DNA of 35,244 bases, from IMG/VR virus record IMGVR_UViG_2740892431_000022, one strand, 5' to 3'. The position numbers and the translations under genes are program-made. Shown here piece by piece: positions 1,113 to 33,265 of this stretch. This DNA is from a virus (lineage: Duplodnaviria > Heunggongvirae > Uroviricota > Caudoviricetes). Below the pieces are notes generated by a model. That model saw only the letters and a list, made by a program, of their open reading frames with translations. It was not told the DNA's origin and ran no database searches. How positions within the stretch are numbered: the first letter of the stretch is position 1; each line of letters begins with the position of its first letter.

Positions 1113-1746
1113 TCATTCATCGTTCGTTGCACGAACGCGCCTGATCTCCACTCTGGCAATCTGATCTGCTGGAATATAGGTTGCCAGAGCTCCCCAGTAC
1201 TTATCAACCACGCCTTTATACTCTTCCCATTCGTTACTTCCTGAAGGGCTGCTGTGCGTGACGTAAAGAACCATATCGCCTTTATTTCCCAGGGTAAACG
1301 GACCGTTAGGCCACTCTTCAAAGTTCCCTGGCAGCCGTGACATCATACCGGAACCATCGCGAAGAATCACTCTGACCTCGGTGACGCTGAAGCCTGTTTG
1401 ATCAAACATTGCCTGCCATGCTGAGCTGGTATTGTCAGACCATGAAATATCATTATTCCACAGTAATCTGTACATCCATTTGCGACCGTACCTGCGCCAC
1501 CACGCACCGCATGTAACGGCACACAGAAGTGCTGGGGGGGTTGCCAGCCAGGCATTCAGACCTGCCCACATAACAGCCTGGTAAGCCATCATTGCTGTCA
1601 GGCCAAAAATCAGCGAAGAAAAAGTCACCTCAATGGGTTTGTGGTGATCCTTCAGCCCCACATTCGCAATAAAATACCCAATATAGCCACTGGTCAGGGT
1701 CACCAGTGTTGCCCATGGCAGATTTAATAACGAAACGTCAAACATA
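1113..1746 (-). CDS. Polytopic membrane protein (about 3 TM helices plus a roughly 110-aa C-terminal domain), cargo gene at the prophage end
   Basis: ORF 1113..1823; start assigned to the ATG at 1746 (MFDVSLL...) preceded by GGGAGA; hydrophobic helices LPWATLVTLTSGYIGYFIANVGL, VTFSSLIFGLTAMMAYQAVMWAGL and WLATPPALLCAVTCGAWW; no family recognised. Confidence 0.7.
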
Positions 1747-1780
1747 TTTTCTCCCTGCATCCTGAATATTACATAGAGAG

Positions 1781-1813
1781 CATAAAAAAAGCACGGTAAA
1801 GGGTCTACCGTGC
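1781..1813 (-). terminator. Rho-independent terminator downstream of the Mor-like gene
   Basis: On the minus-strand RNA: 8-bp stem GCACGGUA/UACCGUGC (1792-1799 with 1806-1813), 6-nt loop, then a run of 7 U (plus-strand A-run 1785-1791). Confidence 0.7.
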
Positions 1814-1859
1814 TCTTATACAATAAGGAGATTTTTGAAAGGACTTTAACAAGCAGGAA

Positions 1860-2258
1860 TTATCTGGATTTGTTAACGTCTTTCGTCTCCTCTGGCAGAT
1901 CTTCATCAAACAACCTGCCCTGCATCCGATCCAGTTCTTCTTTTCTGACCCGCTTAACCACGCTGTAGACCCACTGAAGCGAAACACCAAAATTGCGGGC
2001 CAGTTCGTGGTGGTTGCGTCCGTTAAACTCCCTGAAGATTTCCCGGTCGCGCTGACTGACCTTCCATACCATGCCCATCGGGAAATAAACGTTTTGCCCG
2101 CCCCAGACCTGCATCATTCGGTTCGCGACGGCCTGACCAATCTGGTCGGCAATTGCGGGCTCAATATCAATAATCTCGCGAACGGTCTCAGAGGTATGCT
2201 GTGCCAGTTCCACCAGGAGTTCCGGCCCTTTACTTCGAAACTGATTCAGGTCGCTCAT
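1860..2258 (-). CDS. mor: Mor/C-family transcriptional activator (middle operon regulator-like)
   Basis: Family signature ...GGQNVYFPMG...RDREIFREFNGRNHHELARNFGVSLQWVYSVVKRVR; GGGAG ribosome-binding site upstream; last gene of the early operon. Confidence 0.88.
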   Translation of the reverse strand: MSDLNQFRSKGPELLVELAQHTSETVREIIDIEPAIADQIGQAVANRMMQVWGGQNVYFPMGMVWKVSQRDREIFREFNGRNHHELARNFGVSLQWVYSVVKRVRKEELDRMQGRLFDEDLPEETKDVNKSR

Positions 2259-4319: not shown

Positions 4320-4592
4320 TCAGTGCTTCCGGCTGACGGTGATGTGCAGGCCGCCTTCTGCAGTGGTTTCCATCCGGTACGGCACCTCATGCTCTGCCGT
4401 GTGGGTGAGTGTGTTCATCAGTACCTGCAGGGCAGCCTCCTTTCCGTTGGTCGCCACAATGGCCTGTGTGGCCATGCTGATTAGCGCCGTCAGGACGTGA
4501 TTCACATCGGTGAGGTCGCGGCATTCACACTCGTTGACATAGTGTTCAACAAGGGTTCGGGTGCGCTGTCGTGCTTCCTGTGGGGTAATCAT
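4320..4592 (-). CDS. Hypothetical early protein (90 aa)
   Basis: GGGAGG ribosome-binding site; ATGA overlap with the stop of the upstream Zn-ribbon gene. Confidence 0.6.
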   Translation of the reverse strand: MITPQEARQRTRTLVEHYVNECECRDLTDVNHVLTALISMATQAIVATNGKEAALQVLMNTLTHTAEHEVPYRMETTAEGGLHITVSRKH

Positions 4593-4783
4593 TGCGCGTC
4601 CTCCCTGTCAGGGCGGGAGAATTCCATGACGGGCACGTCCGCCGAAAAATGCTGGCTGCAGTACGGGCAGACCAGGGTGACACGTACTGCAGGTATGTGA
4701 TACTTACCGGACATCACGGCGATGGCGCTGTGAAAACGCAGGGCTGTTATATCCCTCTCGCACTGAATACATTTAAATATCAT
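4589..4783 (-). CDS. Zn-ribbon protein (CxxC...CxxC, 64 aa)
   Basis: Cys pairs at residues 5/8 and 39/42 (CIQC ... CPYC); GAGGAG ribosome-binding site. Confidence 0.6.
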   Translation of the reverse strand: MIFKCIQCERDITALRFHSAIAVMSGKYHIPAVRVTLVCPYCSQHFSADVPVMEFSRPDREDAQ

Positions 4784-6887: not shown

Positions 6888-8657
6888 TCAGTTGCCGTTA
6901 ACAATGCTGATAACACTGCTGCGTGCCGGCGTGGTCAGCGTGGCCATGACTTCATCCAGTGCAGCTTCCGGTACGCCGTCCGGGTACTGTGCCGTTAACT
7001 GGCGGTAATGTTCCGGCGTCCAGGTAAGGCCGTCGGCGCTGAACTTATCGCGCAGGGCTTTCGCGGCCTCCACATGAGTCATGGGACGTTGTTCAGTGCG
7101 CGGCCCGCGTACGTCAGAGGCCTGACCACGCTTCGGCATATAGGCCGGAAGTGTGGTGTCGTCGATATGTTTATACGGGTCAAGCCGCCCGCCGAACGGC
7201 AGCGCCTTCGCCTTGCGTGCGGCGGCTGCATCTGCGGCGTTGTCTGTACCGGTAACCAGCGCTTCAGTTTCTTTTGCCGCCATCTGTGCCGAGGTTTCCG
7301 GCAGGGCTTTGTAACTTTCGCCAAATACCGCCGCGCCTTCAGCAAAGCCAAACTCGTTCTTTCTGACCTCTTCGACCAGGAAGAACGTCTCGTGGCCGTC
7401 CTCACCGGTCAGAACCACCTGTGCCACATCGCTGCGCCATGGGTTACGGGTAATCATCAGTTTTTCACCAACCAGTACGCCCGGTACCGTTGATACGTCA
7501 AATTCAGTGCCCCGGAACGAGACACGAAGTTTTGGCGTGACTTTGCGGAGTTCTGGTGCCGCCACAGCCAGTTCACGACATACCTCAACGGAAGGCGCTT
7601 TTTTCAGCTGCTCAGCAGTAATCTTCAGCCAGATATCCGTGCGGGTTTTACCGTGGCGGCTGTGAACAGCCGTGGCGTTAAAGTGGCTGCGCCATTTCGC
7701 GGCCAGCGCGTTGAGTTCTTCCAGACTGTGAACCGGCCGGAACTTCAGCCCCGGCTCCAGCTTGCGTTCGATAATGTCACGCGCCTTTTCCACCTGTCCG
7801 GTGGCGCGGGCGTTATGCGGCTTGTGCGCTATCAGGTCGATGCCCAGTGAGCGGCACATGTTTTTCGTCATACCCGCGGTGTTTGCCGAGCCGGGGTCGA
7901 GATAGAGTATTTTCGGCACGCCGTGCAGCACGTCTGCGCCGCCACGCTCCTGCATGGCGTTGATAAGCACAGAACACAGGTTCTCACCTGATTCCGCGCC
8001 CGTCACATACTCAACGTAAATCCAGCCGCTGGCATGGTCGGTAATCTCGTAACTCCACACGCGGTCACTGGCGATACGGGCAAGGTTAGCGGGCTTGTTC
8101 TTGTAGAACTTCGCGCTGTCCATCACCTGCAGCCCTTTATGTCCATTGCTCAGGTAGTAAAGCGTGCAGAGTGAGGCGTCAATCTGCCAGACATGATTGG
8201 GATGCAGACTGGCCACTTCGGTATGTGGTGCAGGGGCATCCAGTTGTTCCGGGTGCAGGCCATAGTTACGCAGAGCACGGCTGATGGCATCTTCAGACAA
8301 CGGGAAAAACTCACTGGTGGTTTCATCTGTTCTGCCTGCGGTGATAAAGCCGTTAGCCCGCAGGGTTTCCACTGCATCTGCGATGGAATAGAGACGCTTA
8401 CCGTTCTTGCGGGTGGCCTCACGCAGTGTGGCAGATATCAGCGCGGCTTCGTCGCGGGTCAGGGCGCTGCGCCCGGCATCGGCGCGTTTTTTGCGTTTAT
8501 CAGTCACAGAGACCTCCTTCAGCCTGCGCAGCAGAGTGGCGCGGGACATGCCAAGTTCAGCACAGGCAGCGTCGTATATTGCACCGCGTTTACCATGCCC
8601 CGCGTCACGTGCCGCGCGGGCGACATAAACCAGTCGTTCAGTCAGGGCAGCATTCAT
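6888..8657 (-). CDS. Mu-type DDE transposase A
   Basis: 589 aa; N-terminal DNA-binding region, central rve-like core (...HVWQIDAS..., ...LYLDPGSANTAG...) and C-terminal region; GGAGG ribosome-binding site; immediately upstream of B. Confidence 0.92.
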   Translation of the reverse strand: MNAALTERLVYVARAARDAGHGKRGAIYDAACAELGMSRATLLRRLKEVSVTDKRKKRADAGRSALTRDEAALISATLREATRKNGKRLYSIADAVETLRANGFITAGRTDETTSEFFPLSEDAISRALRNYGLHPEQLDAPAPHTEVASLHPNHVWQIDASLCTLYYLSNGHKGLQVMDSAKFYKNKPANLARIASDRVWSYEITDHASGWIYVEYVTGAESGENLCSVLINAMQERGGADVLHGVPKILYLDPGSANTAGMTKNMCRSLGIDLIAHKPHNARATGQVEKARDIIERKLEPGLKFRPVHSLEELNALAAKWRSHFNATAVHSRHGKTRTDIWLKITAEQLKKAPSVEVCRELAVAAPELRKVTPKLRVSFRGTEFDVSTVPGVLVGEKLMITRNPWRSDVAQVVLTGEDGHETFFLVEEVRKNEFGFAEGAAVFGESYKALPETSAQMAAKETEALVTGTDNAADAAAARKAKALPFGGRLDPYKHIDDTTLPAYMPKRGQASDVRGPRTEQRPMTHVEAAKALRDKFSADGLTWTPEHYRQLTAQYPDGVPEAALDEVMATLTTPARSSVISIVNGN

Positions 8658-10182: not shown

Positions 10183-10211
10183 ATTATGAGAACTATTGTT
10201 CTCATTGTCAA
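10183..10211 (-). promoter_or_regulatory. Early promoter Pe (minus strand): -35 TTGACA, 17-bp spacer, -10 CATAAT
   Basis: Reverse complement of 10206-10211 is TTGACA and of 10183-10188 is CATAAT; about 45 nt upstream of the ner-like ATG. Confidence 0.6.
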
Positions 10212-10214
10212 TGA
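10186..10214. promoter_or_regulatory. Operator-like palindromes overlapping Pe
   Basis: ATGAGAAC-tatt-GTTCTCAT (10186-10205, 8-bp arms) fills the Pe spacer; TCATTG-t-CAATGA (10202-10214) overlaps the -35. Confidence 0.55.
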
Positions 10215-10221
10215 GGTTTGT

Positions 10222-10647
10222 GTGAATTTTGATTCTCTTTGCGCGTCGCGGTTCAAAGCTGAGCGTTCGCGGTTATCACTCAAGCAGGCTGAAGTAGCAG
10301 CCCTTTGTGGCGTTTCAAGAGAAATGTGGGGGAAATATGAACGAGGGGTTGCTGTTCCCGGAGGTGAGTTACTTGCAGCCTTTGCAAGAATTGGGGCCAA
10401 TGTACAGTTCATTCTTACCGGGGAGTCATCAGGTATAACTTTATCACGTGATGAAATGGAGTTACTGCAGCACTACCGGCAGGCACCATTACAGGTCAAA
10501 GGTTCAGTTTTGTCGGCCTTGACTACTGGCTCCTCCAGAGAACGGGCGGAACAGGTTATTCATGGAGATGTTCTGGGGAATGTTATCAAAGGTAACGTAA
10601 CCATAGGAACAGGTGGAATAATGAACAAAAATACCAAGAGAAGATGA
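10222..10647 (+). CDS. XRE-family HTH repressor-like protein
   Basis: HTH ...LSLKQAEVAALCGVSREMWGKYERG...; divergent from the ner-A-B operon; GTG at 10222 has GAGG 5 nt upstream; the ORF-track ATG at 10186 lies inside the operator palindrome (a leaderless start there is not excluded). Confidence 0.7.
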   Translation: MNFDSLCASRFKAERSRLSLKQAEVAALCGVSREMWGKYERGVAVPGGELLAAFARIGANVQFILTGESSGITLSRDEMELLQHYRQAPLQVKGSVLSALTTGSSRERAEQVIHGDVLGNVIKGNVTIGTGGIMNKNTKRR

Positions 10648-11630
10648 GTAAAGAGAAGCAAACAGTTAACGGGGATGTGGGTAACGTTGTCAGCGGTGAT
10701 GTTACCATTCATAACTATTCTGCTGACATACTTCCTTCGGCCCAGCAACCAATTTCGTTGCTGCAAAAACGCGATTTACACAGATTGATGGATGAATTGG
10801 TTGATCTGGGGGAAAGTAAGCGCGAGCTATGGATGACGATCCACACGAAACTTAATACCAAAACAGTTAATGAAATGACTGCGGCTGATTATCATGGTGC
10901 GGTTGAGATCCTTCAGAGATATGCACAACAGATCCAGAATATGAAGGACTGTAATCTTCTGGTCAGCAAAATAATGGCGCTTACTGACCCTGGGTATCGT
11001 CTTGACCGTGACAGATACTGTCTGAAGCATTTCGGTACAACCCATCTTAAAGGCCTAGACAAAGAGCAGTTGCAGGCTGTGTTTGGTTATTTTGATGATC
11101 TGCTGAATATTCGTGATGAGAGTAAAACTCTATCACCTCCATCGGAAAGCGGTGCAAAATCAGTCGCAACTGTACCAACCAGAAGCTGGAAGCCTCATGT
11201 AGTAGTGTTGGGGGGAGTGTTAGTTCTTGTAGCAATATTTTTCGTGGGAATGATTGTGTTCGCTGGTAAATGGGGAAATGCCAAAGCAGTAGCTTCTACT
11301 GAAACCAGCGTTTTTAACATTAAAACCAACGATAAAATAATAGAAGATTCCATCCCCGCACTGCGCAGCATGTTTCCAGGGTTAAATAAGTACTCAGATG
11401 ATTTCCATTCGGTTTCAAGCTACAAGCAAAAAACGGGCTGGCATACCCTTAAATTTACTGTATCAGCAAAGGCATCCGTCCCCGAAAATTATAGTGTTAA
11501 GGGCAAGGTTTGTTACATTAACATAAGCCCTGATGGTAGTTATGCTCGGGTTTTGACTGCTCCATGTCGTTCACTGCTACTTGATCAGCAAAGCACTCCT
11601 GACAGTAAATACCGTTTTATTCTTAAATAG
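10644..11630 (+). CDS. Single-pass membrane protein (328 aa), unknown function
   Basis: ATG overlaps the repressor stop (ATGA); roughly 180-aa N-terminal domain, one TM (HVVVLGGVLVLVAIFFVGMIVFAG), roughly 120-aa C-terminal domain with two Cys; sampled GC about 33-47 percent. Confidence 0.75.
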   Translation: MSKEKQTVNGDVGNVVSGDVTIHNYSADILPSAQQPISLLQKRDLHRLMDELVDLGESKRELWMTIHTKLNTKTVNEMTAADYHGAVEILQRYAQQIQNMKDCNLLVSKIMALTDPGYRLDRDRYCLKHFGTTHLKGLDKEQLQAVFGYFDDLLNIRDESKTLSPPSESGAKSVATVPTRSWKPHVVVLGGVLVLVAIFFVGMIVFAGKWGNAKAVASTETSVFNIKTNDKIIEDSIPALRSMFPGLNKYSDDFHSVSSYKQKTGWHTLKFTVSAKASVPENYSVKGKVCYINISPDGSYARVLTAPCRSLLLDQQSTPDSKYRFILK

Positions 11631-11720
11631 AAAATAACAGCTGAATTACCATGGGATCAGAAAAAAGACAAAGGCGGCATCATGCTGCGTTCTGAAATTT
11701 TAATGTAAAAGGTGATGAAC

Positions 11721-12302
11721 ATGGCAGGGATTCAGGTTATCGCAGGAAGTTTTCCTAAAGGGTGGGCAAGCATGGGGTTCGGTACCATCGTGTTTGCCAA
11801 AAAACCAAAACAAGGCTTTCCTGAAAATATTGTATTAAATCTGAAAGAAGAGCTTTTATCGATTGAACTTGCGGATAGTGAAGAGGAAAACCGTATAGGT
11901 AAGGCGGCAGGCGCAGGTTTGCTTGGTGGATTAATCTTTGGTGGTGCAGGGTTGGTCATTGGAGGTTTGCTTGGTGCGGCGGACAAGACGAAAAAAACTA
12001 TCACTTTTAAGGCAATGTTTACGGGAAATAGGTTACTTCTGGCTAAAACAGATTCAAAAACTTTTGTAAAACTTCAGTCAATTGCTGCTGATAATGCCCA
12101 TAACGCATCTGTAATCAACATGAAGCAAACTAATAGGGGCGATGTTTCTTCTCGTAAACAACTAACAGAAAATCCACAGCAGCAAGACTTACCTGCGCCC
12201 GCTACAACAGTAAAAATGACTGCCAAAGATAAGTTAGAATCGGCTCTTGGGCTGGGAATCATCGTTATAGCTGTTTGGGCAATAATACACTTCTTTTTTT
12301 AG
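11721..12302 (+). CDS. Glycine-zipper membrane protein (about 193 aa), unknown function
   Basis: AAGGTGA ribosome-binding site before the ATG at 11721 (ORF opens at 11712); AAGAGLLGGLIFGGAGLVIGGLLGAA segment plus C-terminal hydrophobic helix LGLGIIVIAVWAIIHFFF. Confidence 0.7.
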   Translation: MAGIQVIAGSFPKGWASMGFGTIVFAKKPKQGFPENIVLNLKEELLSIELADSEEENRIGKAAGAGLLGGLIFGGAGLVIGGLLGAADKTKKTITFKAMFTGNRLLLAKTDSKTFVKLQSIAADNAHNASVINMKQTNRGDVSSRKQLTENPQQQDLPAPATTVKMTAKDKLESALGLGIIVIAVWAIIHFFF

Positions 12303-12304
12303 TG

Positions 12305-12328
12305 CAGCCCTTCAGGGCTGTTTCTGTT
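12305..12328 (+). terminator. Putative rho-independent terminator after the cargo operon
   Basis: Stem CAGCCC/GGGCTG (12305-12310 with 12315-12320), loop TTCA, then TTTCTGTT. Confidence 0.5.
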
Positions 12329-12339
12329 CAGGAGGTATC

Positions 12340-12816
12340 TTAAGGATTATCCGGGGCGTTTTCCTGTTTGCCGTACTTCGGAGACGAACAACATTCTGTT
12401 GGCTGACCGGTGAGTTTACGTAACTCCTTCATGAGCAGCTCCTGATCGTAAACTGTCATCAGTGCCGCAATGGTGGCATGCAGTGCATCGGGCAGTATCC
12501 AGGGTTGCCGGCCCGTGGGGCATATAACATCCAGCAGCTCATTCGTCCGACAGATACGCTCCTCGCCGTATGACAACAGGCCCTGTCCCGTGTATTCCTC
12601 TAGCCTGATCACTGTGCCACCCCGTGGCTTCTGCCAGGTCGTCAGATCTTCGCCATTCATACGGCGCTCATTCTCCACGTCAGCAGCATCGACAATGACG
12701 CTGTTTCCGAGTTCCTGTTTCACCATCTCTTCTATCCGCGCCAGTACGTAACTTTTACCGCTGCCCACAGGACCGGACACAGTGACAGTGATGACCGGAT
12801 TCAGTGTGTGCGTCAT
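12340..12816 (-). CDS. Small P-loop NTPase or kinase-like protein (158 aa)
   Basis: Walker A GPVGSGKS at residues 15-22, then VIVDAAD; AGGAGA ribosome-binding site; opposite strand to both neighbours. Confidence 0.75.
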   Translation of the reverse strand: MTHTLNPVITVTVSGPVGSGKSYVLARIEEMVKQELGNSVIVDAADVENERRMNGEDLTTWQKPRGGTVIRLEEYTGQGLLSYGEERICRTNELLDVICPTGRQPWILPDALHATIAALMTVYDQELLMKELRKLTGQPTECCSSPKYGKQENAPDNP

Positions 12817-12877
12817 ATCGTATTCTCCTCTGTGAATAATTCATCGTTTATCCTGCACATCCCGTATCCCCGGCTCT

Positions 12878-12927
12878 CTTAACGCGCTTTAAAATCCTTC
12901 GCGCCCTGTATTTGTGATGCTGTCTCC
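12878..12927 (+). promoter_or_regulatory. Putative late promoter for the lysis operon
   Basis: CTTAA (12878-12882), TTAAAATC (12889-12896) and CTGTCTCC (12920-12927); the same arrangement recurs upstream of two other late operons. Confidence 0.4.
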
Positions 12928-12946
12928 ACCAAACGAGGAGACACAC

Positions 12947-13297
12947 ATGAAAAACCTGAAAAAATTCATTCCCCCTGTTAAAAAACCTCGCCTCAGCGGC
13001 TGGCTGCTGACCTCAGTGCTGTTGCTGGGCACCATCGCTCTGGTCTCACCACAGCAGCTGCCTGTTGTGATCTACAAGCTGGCACTCATCACGCTGGCAG
13101 CAGTGCTGGGTTACTGGCTTGACCGTTCGCTCTTCCCCAAAGCCCGTCCCGGTCAGTACCTGAAACATGACGACAGGCTGATGGCTGAAGGGCGTTTCCC
13201 GGTACAGACCGGCCTTCACCTGGTGTTTTCTGCTGCGTTAATCCGCCGTGCACTGATTGTTGCAGCGGTCTGCCTGGCTGTTGCGATGGGGCTTTAA
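12947..13297 (+). CDS. Putative holin (3 TM, 116 aa)
   Basis: GAGGAG ribosome-binding site; three hydrophobic helices; immediately upstream of the endolysin. Confidence 0.6.
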   Translation: MKNLKKFIPPVKKPRLSGWLLTSVLLLGTIALVSPQQLPVVIYKLALITLAAVLGYWLDRSLFPKARPGQYLKHDDRLMAEGRFPVQTGLHLVFSAALIRRALIVAAVCLAVAMGL

Positions 13298-13299
13298 TC

Positions 13300-14040
13300 A
13301 TGAACTGGCCGCAGATCACCTGGATTGTATGCATGTCCCTGAAACTGGCTTTCGAAGCCTTTCGGGTCTTCATCAGAACCGAACGCCTGTCAGTCCGCGC
13401 CGGGACCTTTCTGGTTCATATGGCATGGGTATTCTTTGTCGCAATGTTGCTCTGGTGTGGCGGCTTTTTCAGCCAGGCATGCGCAGCACAACCTCCGCAG
13501 GCTGCGCTGCAGTATCGCGATGATGTGATCCGTAATGCCCGGCTTGAATGGGGACTGTCTGCGCCGGTGGCCGATTTCGCCGCGCAACTGCATCAGGAAA
13601 GCGGCTGGCGACCTGATGCGATCTCGCCGGCTGGCGCTCAGGGACTGGCGCAGTTCATGCCTGCCACTGCCGACTGGATAAGCCAGTTGATACCGATGCT
13701 GAGCAGTCGTGAGCCGTTTAATCCGGCATGGGCTATCCGGGCGCTGGTCAGCTATGACCGCTGGCTGTGGCAGCGTGTCAGCGCCGCCAGTGACTGCGAG
13801 CGTATGGCCATGACACTGTCGGGCTATAACGGTGGTCTGGGCTGGGTACAACGGGACAGGCGGCTTGCATCACAGAAAGGTCTGGACAGCACCCGCTGGT
13901 TCGGACATGTCGCCACGGTGAATGCCGGACGCAATGCGGCCAGCTGGCGGGAGAACCGCCATTATCCGCAGCGCATCCTGCGCGAACTGGCACCGCGATA
14001 TCTCACATGGGGAGGCAGCAGTTGTGTGGCATCTGGTTAA
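13300..14040 (+). CDS. Endolysin, lytic transglycosylase with an N-terminal signal-anchor (SAR-like) segment
   Basis: SLT-type motif ...LHQESGWRPDAISPAGAQGLAQFMPATA...; hydrophobic N-terminal segment WVFFVAMLLWCGGFF. Confidence 0.8.
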   Translation: MNWPQITWIVCMSLKLAFEAFRVFIRTERLSVRAGTFLVHMAWVFFVAMLLWCGGFFSQACAAQPPQAALQYRDDVIRNARLEWGLSAPVADFAAQLHQESGWRPDAISPAGAQGLAQFMPATADWISQLIPMLSSREPFNPAWAIRALVSYDRWLWQRVSAASDCERMAMTLSGYNGGLGWVQRDRRLASQKGLDSTRWFGHVATVNAGRNAASWRENRHYPQRILRELAPRYLTWGGSSCVASG

Positions 14041-20270: not shown

Positions 20271-20319
20271 CTAAAGCAGATTAAAATCGCCGGGCCTGCA
20301 TTTCTCACAAACTGTCTCC
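20271..20319 (+). promoter_or_regulatory. Putative late promoter for the head protease/scaffold operon
   Basis: CTAAA (20271-20275), TTAAAATC (20281-20288), CTGTCTCC (20312-20319), with the same 31-bp box spacing as at 12889/12920. Confidence 0.4.
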
Positions 20320-20343
20320 GACAACATAACGCGGGACAGCAAA

Positions 20344-21459
20344 ATGTCAGCCATTCACATTTTTAAAGCCGGTACTCATACCGATATGCACGGCAAAAAA
20401 CTGCCGTTCACGCCAGACGATCTTGCCGCCTGCGTGAAAGCCTATGACCCGTCCGTCCATGAAGCACCACTCGTGATTGGTCATCCCAGAACGGAAGACC
20501 CGGCGTGGGGCTGGGTGAAAGCCCTGTCGCTCAGCGGCGTCGATCTGATGGCAGAGCCTGCCCAGCTGGACCCGCAGTTTGCTGAGATGGTCACCGACGG
20601 ACGATTCAAAAAAGTGTCCGCCTCTTTCTACCTCCCGGATTCACCGTCCAATCCGAAGCCCGGCGTGCTCTACCTTCGCCATGTGGGCTTTCTCGGGGCA
20701 CAGCCACCTTCCGTCAAGGGGCTGAAACAGGTGTCCTTCAGTGAGCAGGAAGAAGGTGTGGTGGAGTTCGCCGACTGGCAGGCCATCACGAATGCCTCCC
20801 TGTGGGGAAAGCTGCGCGATTTTCTGATCGCCCGCTTCAGTCTGGACGAGGCAGAAAAAGTCCTGCCGGAATGGCAGCTCAACAGTCTGCGCGAAGAGGC
20901 GTACCGCGACACACTGTCGCAGGATGCAGCAGGTGCACAATTCAGTGAGACAGGCCCGGGGCCGTCTTCCGCAAGTAACGAGGAATCATCGATGACAAAA
21001 GAAGAGATTGAAGCCCTTCAGGAGGAGAACCGCCGCCTGAAGCAGCAGGCTGCTGATCGCGATGCGCGTGATGCACAGGTCAGACAGGAGCAACTGCATA
21101 AGGACAATGTGGCCTTTGCAGAAAAACTGGTCGCAGAGGGCCGTCTGGCTCCCCGCGCCTCCTCCGTGGTGGTTGCCCTGCTGGATGCCGTCGCCGGTGG
21201 CGACAAGCCGGTGGAGTTTGCTGAGGGGGAAAGCCGCACACCGCTGGCCACCGCCTTTCGTTCATTGCTCTCCGACGGGGAGCCGGTGATGAATTTCGCC
21301 GAACAGGCCACAAAAGAGCGTGTCGGCGACACGGTGAAGGTGGATGTGGCAGAGTTTGCGGAAGCCGATCCTGAGCGTCTGGCCCTGCATCAGAAAGCAG
21401 TGGCCCTGTCCAAAAAAGAAGGCATCAGCTATGAGGCTGCTGTCGCACGCTGCCTGTAA
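20344..21459 (+). CDS. Head maturation protease/scaffold (Mu I-like)
   Basis: 371 aa; N-terminal protease-like domain and C-terminal coiled-coil/acidic scaffold-like region; directly upstream of the major head gene. Confidence 0.82.
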   Translation: MSAIHIFKAGTHTDMHGKKLPFTPDDLAACVKAYDPSVHEAPLVIGHPRTEDPAWGWVKALSLSGVDLMAEPAQLDPQFAEMVTDGRFKKVSASFYLPDSPSNPKPGVLYLRHVGFLGAQPPSVKGLKQVSFSEQEEGVVEFADWQAITNASLWGKLRDFLIARFSLDEAEKVLPEWQLNSLREEAYRDTLSQDAAGAQFSETGPGPSSASNEESSMTKEEIEALQEENRRLKQQAADRDARDAQVRQEQLHKDNVAFAEKLVAEGRLAPRASSVVVALLDAVAGGDKPVEFAEGESRTPLATAFRSLLSDGEPVMNFAEQATKERVGDTVKVDVAEFAEADPERLALHQKAVALSKKEGISYEAAVARCL

Positions 21460-26167: not shown

Positions 26168-26190
26168 GGGGCTCCGGCCCCTTCTTCTTA
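26168..26190 (+). terminator. Putative rho-independent terminator
   Basis: GGGGC-tccg-GCCCC (26168-26181) followed by TTCTTCTTA. Confidence 0.5.
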
Positions 26191-26236
26191 ATCTCCTTTA
26201 ATATCCGTCACGCGCTTCTCCCGACATACTGCCCTG
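26187..26236 (+). promoter_or_regulatory. Putative late promoter for the tail operon (diverged copy of the late motif)
   Basis: CTTAA (26187-26191), TTAATATC (26198-26205) and CTGCCCTG (26229-26236) at the same spacing as the other two sites. Confidence 0.35.
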
Positions 26237-26257
26237 AACTTACACAGGAGCACAATC

Positions 26258-26593
26258 ATGTCACAGACCCCATCCGATACTTTTAAATTGTCTTATCCCT
26301 TCACCACTGCTGCAGGCACCAGAATTGAGCTGGTTGAACTGAAACGCCTGACGGTAAAAGACCTGAAGCAGGTGCGCAAAATCAGCAAAAACCCGGCAGA
26401 CTGGGACGAACCGCTGATTGCCCGCAGTACTGGTCTTCTCCCGGAAGATCTCGACAATATGGATCTGGCTGATTACCTGCAGTTACAGAAACGATTTCAG
26501 CTCATCACGGGGATGGGTGAGAGCAACCAGGGCGCTGACGCAGGCGCAGGGGCTGCTGGCGAGATGGTTCCGGTTTCAGCCGGGGGAGATTGA
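26258..26593 (+). CDS. Tail assembly chaperone (gpG/gpE-like)
   Basis: 111 aa directly upstream of the tape measure gene; overlapping extension ORF in another frame. Confidence 0.75.
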   Translation: MSQTPSDTFKLSYPFTTAAGTRIELVELKRLTVKDLKQVRKISKNPADWDEPLIARSTGLLPEDLDNMDLADYLQLQKRFQLITGMGESNQGADAGAGAAGEMVPVSAGGD

Positions 26594-26750: not shown

Positions 26751-29700
26751 ATGTCGGGACAGTTTTCAGTCGGCGTTGTTATCGGCGGGATGATTGGCAG
26801 CACATTCCGTTCTGCAATGAGCGGTACCCGCCGTGCGCTTGATTCCCTGAGCGATACCTCACGCCGCCTGCAGGAACGTCAGAACGCTTTAACCCGTGCA
26901 ACAGAACGTTATGGTCAACTGGGTTCTTCCCGGATGCAGCATCTCAACAGCGAGCTGCTGCGGGTAAGCCGCACCATGGAGCAAATTGAGCGCCAGCAGC
27001 GCCGTCTGTCAGCGGCATCCGCTACCAGTGATGCGCTGAAAGCTAACCGCATGGCGCTGTATGGTCAGGGGATTGAAGCGTATGGCATGGCACAGACTGT
27101 TTATCATACGGTTTCCCCTGCCGTTCAGCAGTCCATGTCTTTTCAGGACAAAATGATTGATATGTCGATCACCGCAAAATATGACAATAAAACGCGGGAT
27201 GCACTTGCCGGACAGATAAAAGGCTGGGCGCTTAAATACAATCAGTATCAGGATGAGCTGCAGGAGGCGGTGGGTTCACTCATCAGCGACAATATTGATA
27301 ATGTGTCAGATATCGGTTTTCTGATGCCGGATATTGCCCGCGCGGCAACGGCAACACGCACGTCTGCTCAGGACTGGGCAAAAGTGGCCGCAGTCTGGCA
27401 AAACTCCCTGAAAGGTGCGGCCAGAGATTTTGGTGCCGTTCAGAATATTATGGCTTATGCCGGTGACCAGGGGTCATTTGAAATCCCGGATCAGGTCAAG
27501 TGGATGCAGTCCCTGGCCCCAATGATGGCGGGTATTGCCAGTGGAAAAGAGGCTGTTGCTGAAATCGGGGCCAGTCTCCAGATAGCAAAAATCGGTGCAG
27601 GTTCCACCGACGAAGCAGCTAATAATTTTAAAAACTTTCTTACCAAAATTTTTGCCCGCGATACTCAGAAACAGTTTGCTGATCTGGGTATTGATTTGCA
27701 GGGATCTATTGCGAGTTATAAAGCTGCGGGGATCTCTCCGATTGAAGGGATGTTGAGTGTTATAGAACGTTACCTCAATGCCAAAAGCCCCGAAGCGCTG
27801 GCCGGCTTCAAATCAGCCATGAAAATAAAGAATGATACGGCAAGAGATGAGGCACTTCAGGCTCTGGCGAAAAACTTTGGTCTGGGCGATATGTTCGCGG
27901 ATATGCAGGTCATGGCATTTATCCGCCCGATGCTGGCCAACATGGACAGATATCGAGAGATCCGTGCCGGTGCTCTCAGGGCTGCGGATAACGATTTGCT
28001 TGCCAGTGCTTATGATCAGCGGCTGAAATCTCCCCTTGAAGCCACTAAAACACTTATGGTCAGCAGTCGCGATCTGGCAATTACGCTGGGCGATCAATTA
28101 GCTCCATCTTTTATTTCTTTGACTCAGGAACTGCTTCCACTCATTCAGGGGGCAAAACACTGGGTAGCGACTCACCCGCAATTTGTCAGTGGGGCTTTTA
28201 AGCTCATCAGTGCGCTCCTTGCGATTAAGATAGCGACTGTTGGTCTCAAACTGGGGCTGAATCTCCTTATTTCCCCCTTTGTAAGTGTCTGGAAAAATGC
28301 TGTTTTACTTCGGGCCAACTGGCTTCGTCTGTCGCTCGCACTGGGGCAAGGCGGTAAGCTCCGCTGGCTGGTGACCGGATTTAGCGCCGTCGCCAGAGGA
28401 GCCAGAACACTGAGTGGCGTGCTCTCCGGGGGGCTGGTTCGCGGAATTATGCTCGCCGGACGTGCTGTTCTCTGGATTGGACGTGCGCTGATGATGAATC
28501 CCATCGGTCTCGTTATCACCGCTGTCGCGGCAGCAGCTTACCTTATCTACCGCAACTGGGGGGCAGTCAGTGGCTGGTTTAAACAGCGCTGGGCAGACAT
28601 TCAGGAAGCCTTTAACGGCGGCATTGTGGGAATTGGTAAGTTACTGATTAACTGGTCGCCGGCAGGCCTGCTCTATAAAGCCTTTGCGGCTGCGCTGAAA
28701 TATTTCGGCGTTGCTCTGCCGGCAAAGTTCACCGACTTCGGTGGCCATCTTATCGACGGTCTGATTAACGGTATCAAAAACAAATGGGGGTCGCTCAAAT
28801 CCAGTGTAACCGGAATGGGTGACAGCATCAGTAGCTGGTTTAAACAGTGCTGGGCTGACATTCAGGAAGCCTTTAACGGCGGTATCGCGGGAACTGGTAA
28901 GCTGCTGATTAACTGGTCGCCGGCAGGTCTGCTCTATAAAGCCTTTGCAGCTGCGCTGAAATATCTTGGTGTTGATCTGCCGGCAAAGTTCACCGACTTC
29001 GGTGGCCATCTTGTCGACGGTCTGATTAACGGTATCAAAAACAAATGGGAGTCGCTCAAATCCAGTGTAACCGGAATGGGTGACAGCATCAGTGGCTGGT
29101 TCAGCGAAAAGCTGGGCATTCATTCGCCGAGCCGCGTGTTTATGGGCTTTGGTGACAATATAAGCTGGTTTAAACAGTGCTGGGCTGACATTCAGGAAGC
29201 CTTTAACGGCGGTATCGCGGGAACTGGTAAGCTGCTGATTAACTGGTCGCCGGCAGGTCTGCTCTATAAAGCCTTTGCAGCTGCGCTGAAATATCTTGGT
29301 GTTGATCTGCCGGCAAAGTTCACCGACTTCGGTGGCCATCTTGTCGACGGTCTGATTAACGGTATCAAAAACAAATGGGAGTCGCTCAAATCCAGTGTAA
29401 CCGGAATGGGTGACAGCATCAGTGGCTGGTTCAGCGAAAAGCTGGGCATTCATTCGCCGAGCCGCGTGTTTATGGGCTTTGGTGACAATATCGCGCAGGG
29501 GGCCGCCATTGGCCTGCAGCGGACCACTCCGCTTGCAGCTCTGGCCGGGCAGCGAATGGCCAGTGAACTGCTCCCCAAAATGCCCGTGAGCATTCAGGGG
29601 CCAGAAATACGGGATAACACTTCAGGTGTTCGCTTCAGTATGCCGTTGCCCGATATCAATGGGTTTATGTCGTCTGCTAAAAATGCGATCGGAGCCGTAA

Positions 29701-32863: not shown

Positions 32864-32917
32864 GCTTTTTAAACGCCTTTAATATCAGCGTTCCCGCACG
32901 GGGGCAATACTGCCCCC

Positions 32918-33265
32918 ATGAAAACAACCTCAGTATTCTGGCAACCAGCCCTGCAGGCTCCCGGCGAAATTGTCCGGGGGCTGGATGATATCCGGCAGGC
33001 GATTCAAATTATCCTGCGGACTCCCCGCGGCAGCGACCCGCATCGCCCGGAGTTCGGCAGCAATCTGCATCTTTATATCGACTGGCCTGTAGACCGGGCC
33101 ATTCCGCATGTGGTGCGCGAATCCGTCGATGCCATCCGGCGCTGGGAGCCCCGCTGCCAGCTTATGTCAGTTAAACCCGCCGTCGACGGCGAACATCTTA
33201 CGCTCCGGGTGAGCTGGAAAGGCTCAGACGGACAGACCCGGACTCAGGTGCTGCTATGGCGCTGA
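32918..33265 (+). CDS. Baseplate protein W (gpW/gp25-like)
   Basis: 115 aa; conserved position. Confidence 0.82.
   Translation: MKTTSVFWQPALQAPGEIVRGLDDIRQAIQIILRTPRGSDPHRPEFGSNLHLYIDWPVDRAIPHVVRESVDAIRRWEPRCQLMSVKPAVDGEHLTLRVSWKGSDGQTRTQVLLWR

Follow-up and report, generated by a model that had tools for sequence, protein, structure and literature searches.

The viral DNA IMGVR_UViG_2740892431_000022 (35,244 nucleotides; hereafter the window, meaning the whole stretch that was analysed) is an Escherichia coli transposable Mu-like prophage of the BcepMu/phiE255 branch, whose late genes run on the plus strand from the holin gene at 12947 (holin, SLT endolysin, terminase, portal, protease at 20344, capsid, sheath, tape measure and baseplate). 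Short inverted repeats that can bury the ribosome-binding site (RBS) stand just before the holin gene and the head protease gene, and they raise the question of which RNA carries these structures and what they do there. A preliminary description, made from the sequence of the window, took them for hairpins in the leaders of the late mRNAs and proposed post-transcriptional control or RNA processing. The analysis presented here points to another arrangement, found at four late-operon starts, in which the 5' strand of the structure lies in the -10 region and discriminator of a putative Mor/C-type late promoter. This promoter-embedded strand probably masks the translation of read-through transcripts, in the manner of gene e of phage T4.

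Inverted repeats before the holin and head protease genes

The genes on which the analysis bears are the following:

12947..13297, plus strand: holin gene, gene 1 of the lysis/head operon (Pfam Holin_2-3, E=1e-41)
20344..21459, plus strand: head maturation protease/scaffold gene, the equivalent of Mu I (PHROG head maturation protease, E=2e-163)
26258..26593, plus strand: tail assembly chaperone gene (Pfam Phage_TAC_7, E=5.5e-21)
32918..33265, plus strand: baseplate wedge (gp25/W) gene (Pfam GPW_gp25)
1860..2258, minus strand: Mor/C-family late transcription activator gene, 132 aa (Pfam Mor PF08765, E=3.6e-43)

The Pfam and PHROG matches bore out the identities first given to the holin and head protease genes, and both of the stems described before them are present. 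On the holin side, TGTCTCC (12921-12927) can pair in full with its exact reverse complement GGAGACA (12937-12943), and this 3' arm, which ends 3 nt before the ATG at 12947, takes in the GGAG of the GAGGAG Shine-Dalgarno (SD) sequence (12935-12940). The minimum free energy (MFE) fold gave a longer helix than the one described, with 15 bp (12911-12927 with 12937-12951) that cover the AUG as well. On the protease side, CTGTCTC (20312-20318) and GGGACAG (20333-20339) form a 7-bp stem with six Watson-Crick pairs and one U.G pair, and the 3' arm ends 4 nt before the ATG at 20344.

As a raw observation, a 7-bp stem is within chance, perfect 7-bp inverted repeats with loops of 3-20 nt numbering 73 in the window and 40 +/- 9 in shuffled sequences; the significance of the two stems comes from their position and conservation. 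The holin and protease sites also share TTAAAATC followed, exactly 31 nt on (start to start), by CTGTCTCC. The latter word is present twice in the window, as expected in 25% of shuffles, and this exact-word repeat, not being significant, was dropped as evidence by itself. A direct-repeat search of the window did not pick up the modules described below, of which only short blocks are conserved, and Rfam covariance models used at the gathering score gave 0 matches over the whole window.

Four promoter/translation-start modules in the window

Inspection of the other late intergenic gaps and a pattern scan of the window showed that the arrangement is present four times. The pattern [TC]TAA-N6-TTAA[AT]A-N21-23-nAnnCT had exactly four matches in the window, when 0.01 were expected, at positions 12879, 20271, 26188 and 32869, all of them on the plus strand and located ahead of the holin, head protease, tail chaperone and baseplate wedge genes, respectively (sites P1 to P4). 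Each module consists of a (T/C)TAA-N6-TTAA dyad, 23 bp, and a -10 hexamer of the form nAnnCT. The structure had been said to be shared by two late leaders; it is indeed shared and conserved, with four sites rather than two (26223-26262 and 32900-32917 are added). The elements of the four modules, all on the plus strand, are as follows:

12879..12896, plus strand: P1 activator site, a TTAA-N6-TTAA dyad (12879-12892) extended to the TTAAAATC box (strict pattern match)
12916..12921, plus strand: P1 -10 hexamer GATGCT, of the nAnnCT type as at Mu Plys and PI, with a TG at 12913-12914 (extended -10)
12921..12927, plus strand: P1 5' arm TGTCTCC, positions -7 to -1; the 5' strand of the MFE fold goes back to 12911
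12928..12929, plus strand: P1 predicted start, A12928 or C12929, 7-8 nt past the hexamer T (from the -10 geometry and the S1-mapped starts of Mu)
12937..12951, plus strand: P1 3' strand in the fold, GGAGACA (SD) + CA + CAUGAA (holin AUG at 12947-12949)
20271..20288, plus strand: P2 activator site CTAA-N6-TTAAAATC (pattern match)
20308..20313, plus strand: P2 -10 hexamer CAAACT, the same as the hexamer of Mu PI (orthologous gene I)
20312..20318, plus strand: P2 5' arm CTGTCTC, positions -8 to -2, overlapping the last two hexamer bases
20320..20321, plus strand: P2 predicted start, G20320/A20321 (deduced as for P1)
20333..20339, plus strand: P2 3' arm GGGACAG (from pairing and conservation)
26188..26205, plus strand: P3 activator site TTAA-N6-TTAATATC, overlapping the T-tract of a terminator hairpin (26168-26181)
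26223..26236, plus strand: P3 5' strand GACAU (26223-26227) + UGCCCUG (26230-26236), containing the -10 hexamer CATACT (26225-26230)
26237..26238, plus strand: P3 predicted start, A26237/A26238 (deduced likewise)
26245..26262, plus strand: P3 3' strand in the fold, CAGG-A-GCA (SD AGGAG) + AUGUC (start codon at 26258)
32869..32886, plus strand: P4 activator site TTAA-N6-TTAATATC (pattern match)
32900..32917, plus strand: P4 hairpin GGGGGCA/UGCCCCC in the fold, ending right before the ATG and kept in relatives

At P4, the -10 hexamer AATACT (32906-32911) makes up the hairpin loop and the first stem pair. On the 5' side of the holin hexamer, ATTTGTG (12910-12916) is invariant in the E. coli-type group and the remaining spacer varies; this heptamer may be under a double constraint, supplying both the TG of the extended -10 and the outer strand for CAUGAA over the start codon.

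The modules as probable late promoters of the Mu C type

The regions located 5' of the four orthologous genes were taken from 116 related loci, comprising 80 IMG/VR contigs and 36 species-representative genomes (Photorhabdus, Xenorhabdus, Pectobacterium, Dickeya, Serratia and Salmonella among them). The P1 activator site was kept in 59/59 distinct holin-upstream sequences. The hexamer, located 19 +/- 1 nt after the 8-bp box, had A2 and T6 in 209/209 distinct dyad-bearing sites and C5 in 205/209, while the 19-nt spacer between box and hexamer varied freely among the 209 sites. A hexamer with invariant A2 and T6 beyond a free spacer is the signature of a promoter and not that of an RNA motif.

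Late promoters of Mu have a -10 and no -35, and their C dimer binds an imperfect dyad centred at -43.5 (PMC2582627) with the consensus TTAT-N5-6-ATAA (PMC12867686). According to PMC4461284, the oligonucleotides of that study reach 20 nt downstream of the S1-mapped Mu late starts, and this design led us to place the hexamers TAGACT (Plys), CAAACT (PI) and TAAGAT (Pmom) in the Mu genome, with the +1 located 7-8 nt past the T. In the window, the centre of the (T/C)TAA-N6-TTAA dyad lies 35.5 bp before the last hexamer base, which corresponds, by geometry only, to -42.5 if the start is 7 nt past the hexamer and to -43.5 if it is 8 nt past it. Comparison with the C-dependent promoters of Mu showed the same activator family, a -10 without a -35, and a similar dyad spacing, the distance from the start of the proximal half-site to the hexamer being 27 bp at 4/4 window sites and 28 bp at Mu Plys, PI and Pmom. 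The hexamers are of the same type (identical at gene I), the promoters stand before lysis genes and gene I in both phages, and the leaders are of ~20 nt. However, the half-sites are TTAA/TTAA here and TTAT/ATAA in Mu, and the remaining promoters stand before the tail chaperone and baseplate wedge genes here, whereas those of Mu are inside gene N and before com.

A standard sigma-70 scan requiring both hexamers found no plus-strand promoter at any of the four sites, as expected of promoters without a -35, and such a scan is unusable for placing the starts. The modules are thus best read, from their sequence, as activator-dependent sigma-70 late promoters of the Mor/C type; activator binding is predicted from geometry and starts are predicted at A12928 (or C12929), G20320/A20321, A26237/A26238 and A32918. 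The Mor/C-family protein of the window, whose DNA-binding region has 35% identity to Mu C (E=8e-15), is presumed to be the activator of all four. No second Mor/C-family protein was found in the window, Mu carrying both Mor and C, and the regulatory cascade of this phage may be two-stage (early then late) rather than three-stage. In the last part of the early operon, the activator gene comes after GemA, and a 236-aa open reading frame (ORF) without a Pfam match follows it (1113-2258, minus strand).

With these predicted starts, the 5' arm (the end of the -10 and the discriminator) would be absent from the RNA made by the adjacent promoter. The location of the hairpins in the leaders of the late mRNAs, as proposed in the preliminary description, did not hold up: the predicted +1 (A12928 at the holin gene and G20320/A20321 at the protease gene) falls in the loop, so that transcription would start inside the stem, downstream of its 5' arm. 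The proposal of post-transcriptional control is supported, since conserved plus-strand RNA structures bury the RBSs of the first genes of late operons in the predicted folds, although not inside the leader of the late mRNA.

A true leader hairpin would demand a start upstream of the 5' arm, the stem then throttling translation or directing processing of the late mRNA and being perhaps relieved by a factor such as Com of Mu. Stems that bury the SD and AUG and are conserved at the RNA level would suit it, and TTAAAAT and TTAATAT in the upstream box look like -10 hexamers. It also has a precedent in Mu com-mom, where the zinc-finger protein Com opens a hairpin that blocks the mom start (PMC6483171); as in the window, the translation start of a late gene of a Mu-type phage is sequestered by an RNA hairpin, but in com-mom the late transcript itself carries the hairpin and a trans-acting protein is required, whereas the 5' strand is here predicted to be absent from the late transcript. 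We consider a leader hairpin unlikely. The box reads TTAAAAG in most relatives, with loss of the key T of a -10, and is half of a dyad located at the Mor/C position, for which reasons TTAAAAT was rejected as a -10. The hexamer that follows it 19 nt on, invariant at A2 and T6, matches the Mu hexamers with mapped starts, and there is no conserved sequence upstream of 12876 for another promoter. No Com homologue was found in the window: a Com-like zinc finger was sought among its early ORFs with no Pfam Com match, and the sole small Cys-containing ORF (4589-4783) did not resemble Mu Com significantly (E=0.11); the window stops short of the right end of the phage. The geometry of the fourth site, described below, only makes sense with the hexamer as a -10.

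A predicted leaderless mRNA at the fourth site

Among 37 distinct orthologous sites, 29 place the A of the ATG (32918 in the window) 7 nt past the hexamer T and the other 8 place it 8 nt past; the start codon is ATG in all 37 and the gene has no SD. The mRNA of the baseplate wedge gene is therefore probably leaderless, with its ATG at the predicted +1. This spacing is the same as that of the predicted starts at the other three sites, for which it supports the hexamer assignment independently. With the predicted fold and start, the P4 hairpin encloses the hexamer and is possible only on read-through RNA.

In BcepMu, phiE255 and Ralstonia phage YO107_2, the protease gene has this geometry too, with its ATG at the predicted +1 (L121/L122 568-588 and L128 565-585). 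For BcepMu gp32, the ATG annotated as the start falls within the hexamer; the true start is probably 12 nt further downstream.

Conservation and covariation of the pairing

Among distinct sequences, 89% of the helix cells at the protease site, 88.5% at the holin site and 95.8% at the third site formed standard pairs, compared with 19-58% in controls in which the 3' partner was slid by 1-3 columns. Duplexes between cognate promoter cores and translation starts had a mean of -13.4 kcal/mol, compared with -10.0 kcal/mol for swapped ones, and 0/20,000 permutations reached the cognate mean. The protease pair 20315-20336 is U-A in 12 sequences, U.G in 8 and C-G in 3, and the pair 20317-20334 is C-G in 9, U.G in 7 and U-A in 7. 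One holin pair is C-G in the window, U.G in Photorhabdus-type phages and U-A in a Xenorhabdus locus (L102), where the change turns the SD from GGAG into GGAA, so that pairing is kept at the cost of an SD base. The compensatory holin cases (L082, L103 and L102) were out of register in the MAFFT alignments and were read by eye.

Distant lineages have unrelated yet complementary arms: GGTCTCC/GGAGACC, CTCCAT/ATGGAG, CTCCGG/CCGGAG, GTGAC/GTCAC, ATGATACT/AGTATCAT and CTGCTCCTGAA/TTCAGGAGCAG, as well as TGTTCCTGAA/TTCAGGAGCA, whose loop is much longer. As the leader length changes, the 3' arm keeps to the SD or AUG, with loops of 4 to ~30 nt. Cells other than Watson-Crick were G.U in 51 cases and A.C in 20, or 51 and 6 without one outer pair, which accounts for 14 of the 20 A.C cells and is found in one lineage only. 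This asymmetry of G.U over A.C points to plus-strand RNA rather than duplex DNA, and these data support the reading of the stems as conserved structures of the plus-strand RNA that bury the RBS of the first gene of late operons.

The same asymmetry bears on a role at the level of DNA, in which a cruciform or non-template hairpin would aid C-dependent melting or exposure of the -10, or in which the repeat would be the operator of a dimeric protein. One arm always includes the -10 or discriminator, the hexamer is in the loop at P4 and in BcepMu and Ralstonia phage, and part of the action of C is reported to be an unwinding of promoter DNA (PMC4461284). Even so, such a role appears improbable: in a cruciform, the G.U changes would become A.C mismatches on the opposite strand, the 3' arms, located at +10 to +20, are outside the open-complex bubble, and the 3' arm follows the SD or AUG rather than a fixed distance from the promoter, the repeat being moreover absent from Mu PP (see below). 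A single protein operator was ruled out for the inverted repeats, since arms and loops differ between sites and lineages.

Folding of read-through RNA and of promoter-initiated RNA

Across lineages, the 5' arms span positions -14 to +2 relative to the +1 defined by the hexamer. In relatives, the arm goes deeper into the hexamer (AACTGTTTCC, -10 to -1) or is the hexamer itself (ATGATACT, -14 to -7). When the 5' arm overlaps the hexamer, the RNA that folds must start upstream of the promoter.

We then compared the predicted folds of read-through RNA and of RNA starting at the predicted +1. At P1, the fold was of -14.2 kcal/mol for the read-through RNA (z -2.67), with the 15-bp helix over the SD and AUG, and of -0.5 kcal/mol from +1. 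The corresponding values were -17.1 and -5.9 kcal/mol at P2 and -12.1 and -1.9 kcal/mol at P3, where SD and AUG are both paired in the read-through RNA. The read-through RNA of P4 had a fold of -17.8 kcal/mol (z -3.28, reached by 0/200 shuffles). When distinct relatives were pooled, the pairing probability of the translation initiation region (TIR) in read-through RNA, in RNA from +1 and with a shuffled promoter core was 0.78, 0.34 and 0.53 at P1, 0.66, 0.43 and 0.56 at P2, and 0.64, 0.39 and 0.48 at P3, respectively.

Phage Mu and other relatives

Comparison with the Mu genome showed that perfect 7-bp repeats straddle the mapped start at Plys and at PI. At Plys, GCCATCA/TGATGGC (AF083977 10450-10484) ends at +1 and lies over the lys ATG; at PI, CTGCTCA/TGAGCAG (AF083977 18026-18049) lies over the annotated RBS of gene I, and the fold is of -16.7 kcal/mol for the read-through RNA (z -3.0) and of -1.5 kcal/mol from +1. 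At Pmom, a 10-bp repeat (GCGAATTGAT/ATCAATTCGC) flanks the RBS and ATG of com. Unlike these three promoters, PP, inside gene N and separated by 335 nt from the next start codon, lacks a repeat of this kind. The absence of a repeat at PP, the tracking of the translation start by the 3' arm and the fold of the PI read-through RNA tie the repeats to translation starts. Mu was too divergent for a capsid alignment that includes it to be used for locus retrieval.

The dyad, hexamer and repeat are also found 5' of the protease gene in BcepMu, phiE255 and phages of Ralstonia, Pasteurella and Pseudomonas:

Pseudomonas phage Komp_PAO1_1, upstream of the protease gene: hexamer CAGGCT, arms GGCTGTGC/GCACAGCC
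Pasteurella phage AFS-2018a, upstream of the protease gene: hexamer TATTCT, arms GCTATTC/GAATAGC
BcepMu and phiE255, upstream of the protease gene: CGCCC-[GATGAT]-GGGCG, ATG 8 nt past the hexamer
Ralstonia phage YO107_2, upstream of the protease gene: GCCGCC-[CAACAT]-GGCGGC, ATG 7 nt past the hexamer

In B3, RcapMu and phiSHP3, the TTAA dyad is absent and the promoters could not be placed. In Rhodobacter phage RcapMu (L125 543-562), a perfect 7-bp hairpin GTCCGTC/GACGGAC lies over an SD-like AAGGA that closely precedes the ATG of the protease gene, which suggests that RBS masking at gene I may reach beyond the BcepMu and Mu groups.

Proposed masking of read-through transcripts and its rivals

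The architecture of the sites, its conservation and covariation and the folds predicted for it are observations. The mechanism that we propose for them, and hold to be somewhat more probable than its rivals and doubts taken together, is a translational masking of read-through transcripts of the T4 gene e type. The -10 and discriminator of each late promoter would complement the SD/AUG region of the gene that starts ~20 nt downstream. Transcription initiated at the promoter would begin between the two strands and yield an mRNA without the 5' strand, unstructured and translated, whereas RNA entering from upstream would hold both strands, fold and bury the RBS, leaving the first gene untranslated. 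In the leaderless form at P4, the hairpin would enclose the -10 hexamer and end at the ATG, which would be the +1. Stray RNA could come from the repressor/cargo genes, from an upstream late operon (the late operons are contiguous) or from leaky terminators; we infer both its existence and its effect on translation. At the holin gene, its likely source would be the rightward repressor/cargo block (10186-12302), located behind one terminator-like hairpin, and masking would provide a fail-safe that keeps the lysogen from lysing:

12304..12321, plus strand: terminator-like hairpin closing the rightward repressor/cargo genes (10186-12302) that are aimed at P1

Several points weigh against this reading. 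The masking would affect no gene of an operon beyond the first, and the benefit is less obvious at P2 to P4; terminator-like hairpins already precede P2 and P3, so that read-through RNA may be scarce there. All +1 positions of this phage were deduced from sequence, some lineages have a 5' arm that reaches +2/+3, and that of Mu Pmom is mostly downstream of +1. The thermodynamic signal at P2 is modest, 19/39 sequences beating 90% of their own shuffles, and the P2 RNA from +1 can still make a small alternative hairpin that touches the AUG (the fold of -5.9 kcal/mol). When single-sequence TIR pairing was compared over the 28 late gene starts of the window, only P1 stood out, P2 and P3 being within the range of ordinary genes, and thermodynamics alone cannot therefore carry the argument. 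In the alignable set, the holin helix has only one-sided (wobble) changes and the core pairs of P1 are invariant. Finally, related sequences are not independent, and the counts overstate the number of evolutionary events.

Another role in RNA was considered, in which the structures would be stability or processing elements giving 3' or 5' protection to polycistronic read-through RNA and the masking of the RBS would be incidental. They do form only on long RNAs and at operon junctions, and processing was also suggested in the preliminary description. However, no late message that would need protection lies upstream of P1, P2 and P3 each have a strong terminator hairpin shortly before them, and the 3' arm is always on the SD or on bases abutting the AUG, even when an SD base is lost as in L102. 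Stems of 7-15 bp are also short for RNase III, and we give this role little probability. Coincidence is very improbable: C-rich discriminators (CTCC) trivially complement GGAG, which makes up 4/7 pairs at P1, its core pairs never vary, and stems of 7 bp are as common in the window as the 73 counted above, but the pairing goes past CTCC/GGAG, persists with unrelated arms in other lineages and sites, shows compensatory changes and withstands both the swap test and the slid controls.

Comparison with known systems

Translational masking by a promoter-embedded strand is known from T4, in which genes e (lysozyme), soc, 49 and I-TevI have a late promoter within the DNA of the 5' strand of the helix that sequesters the RBS (PMC3014915). 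As with gene e, the SD and AUG would be buried on longer upstream transcripts and RNA from the gene's own promoter would be without the 5' strand, which is predicted here; the first T4 example was also a lysis gene, and the rationale was the avoidance of premature lysis. The two systems differ in their promoters, which in T4 are gp55/gp33 late promoters (TATAAATA) and are here Mor/C-dependent sigma-70 promoters of a temperate transposable phage. In T4, the contrast is between early and late transcripts of a virulent phage and is documented experimentally, whereas it is predicted from sequence here; the T4 genes are scattered, whereas the arrangement is here at every late operon start, with one leaderless site.

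A second parallel is IS10/Tn10, which is guarded against external promoters (Davis, Simons and Kleckner 1985, as cited in PMC13181058); comparable arrangements are reported for other insertion sequence elements. In IS10, as is predicted here, transcripts from outside fold and sequester the gene start, while those made by the element's own promoter start within the structure and escape; in both cases a transposable element lands at random in host transcription units. In IS10, however, the outer strand is in the terminal inverted repeat and one transposase gene is concerned, whereas here it is in the promoter core and the late genes are deep inside the element.

The principle is thus known from T4 e and IS10, and its systematic use at Mor/C promoters, including those of Mu, and its leaderless variant appear to be new instances of it. 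In the searchable Mu literature we found no earlier description of start-straddling repeats in Mu-like phages, older subscription work being outside that search. The proposal extends a known mechanism rather than adding a new principle. A general rule for Mu-like phages, Mu included, would be that every Mor/C late promoter abutting a gene embeds an RBS-masking strand in its own -10 or discriminator, with a recurrent leaderless form in which the hexamer is in the hairpin loop and the ATG at +1; our judgement of this rule is evenly divided. If it were true, late proteins, and lysis proteins above all, would be translated only from activator-initiated transcripts, the Mu regulatory cascade would have an undescribed layer of translational fail-safe, and late transcription starts could be located from sequence only in thousands of prophages.

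If the masking of read-through transcripts is correct for the phage of the window, late expression would be gated twice, by C/Mor at transcription and by the RNA mask on transcripts from elsewhere. This would explain how the holin gene stays silent despite random insertion in host operons and despite cargo genes that are expressed in the lysogen and face the lysis cassette. The dyad, the hexamer and the complementarity to the next translation start would together serve as a signature for the annotation of late promoters and starts in Mu-like prophages.

Other features of the window

The early genes are on the minus strand and include the transposase gene (6888-8657), Gam, GemA and the Mor/C-family activator gene (1860-2258). 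The protease of the window is 49-50% identical to those of BcepMu and phiE255, and the holin region is present in 638/5,426 complete E. coli genomes; in E. coli SCU-172 (NZ_CP054353), positions 12817-13300 are matched with 100% identity.

The region between the repressor-like gene and the holin promoter (10644-12816) is a variable cargo region. It has two rightward genes of unknown function (328 and 196 aa), the terminator-like hairpin at 12304-12321, which is bidirectional, and a leftward gene for a 158-aa P-loop protein (phrog_3787). When diverged relatives (KP12, Phi06_2974 B and some E. coli prophages) are compared, the similarity sets in abruptly at ~12876-12880, at the promoter dyad, which suggests a recombination boundary at the edge of the module.

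On the minus strand, a near-consensus sigma-70 promoter (TTGACA-17-CATAAT, 11/12; 10183-10211) faces the Ner-like and transposase genes; this probable early promoter overlaps the rightward helix-turn-helix repressor-like ORF (10186-10647) at the 5' end of the latter.

The tape measure gene (1,093 aa) has three tandem copies of ~300 nt at 28572-29462, which are 86-100% identical and spaced by 261 and 330 nt. These repeats suggest a recent internal duplication, which could alter the length of the tail.

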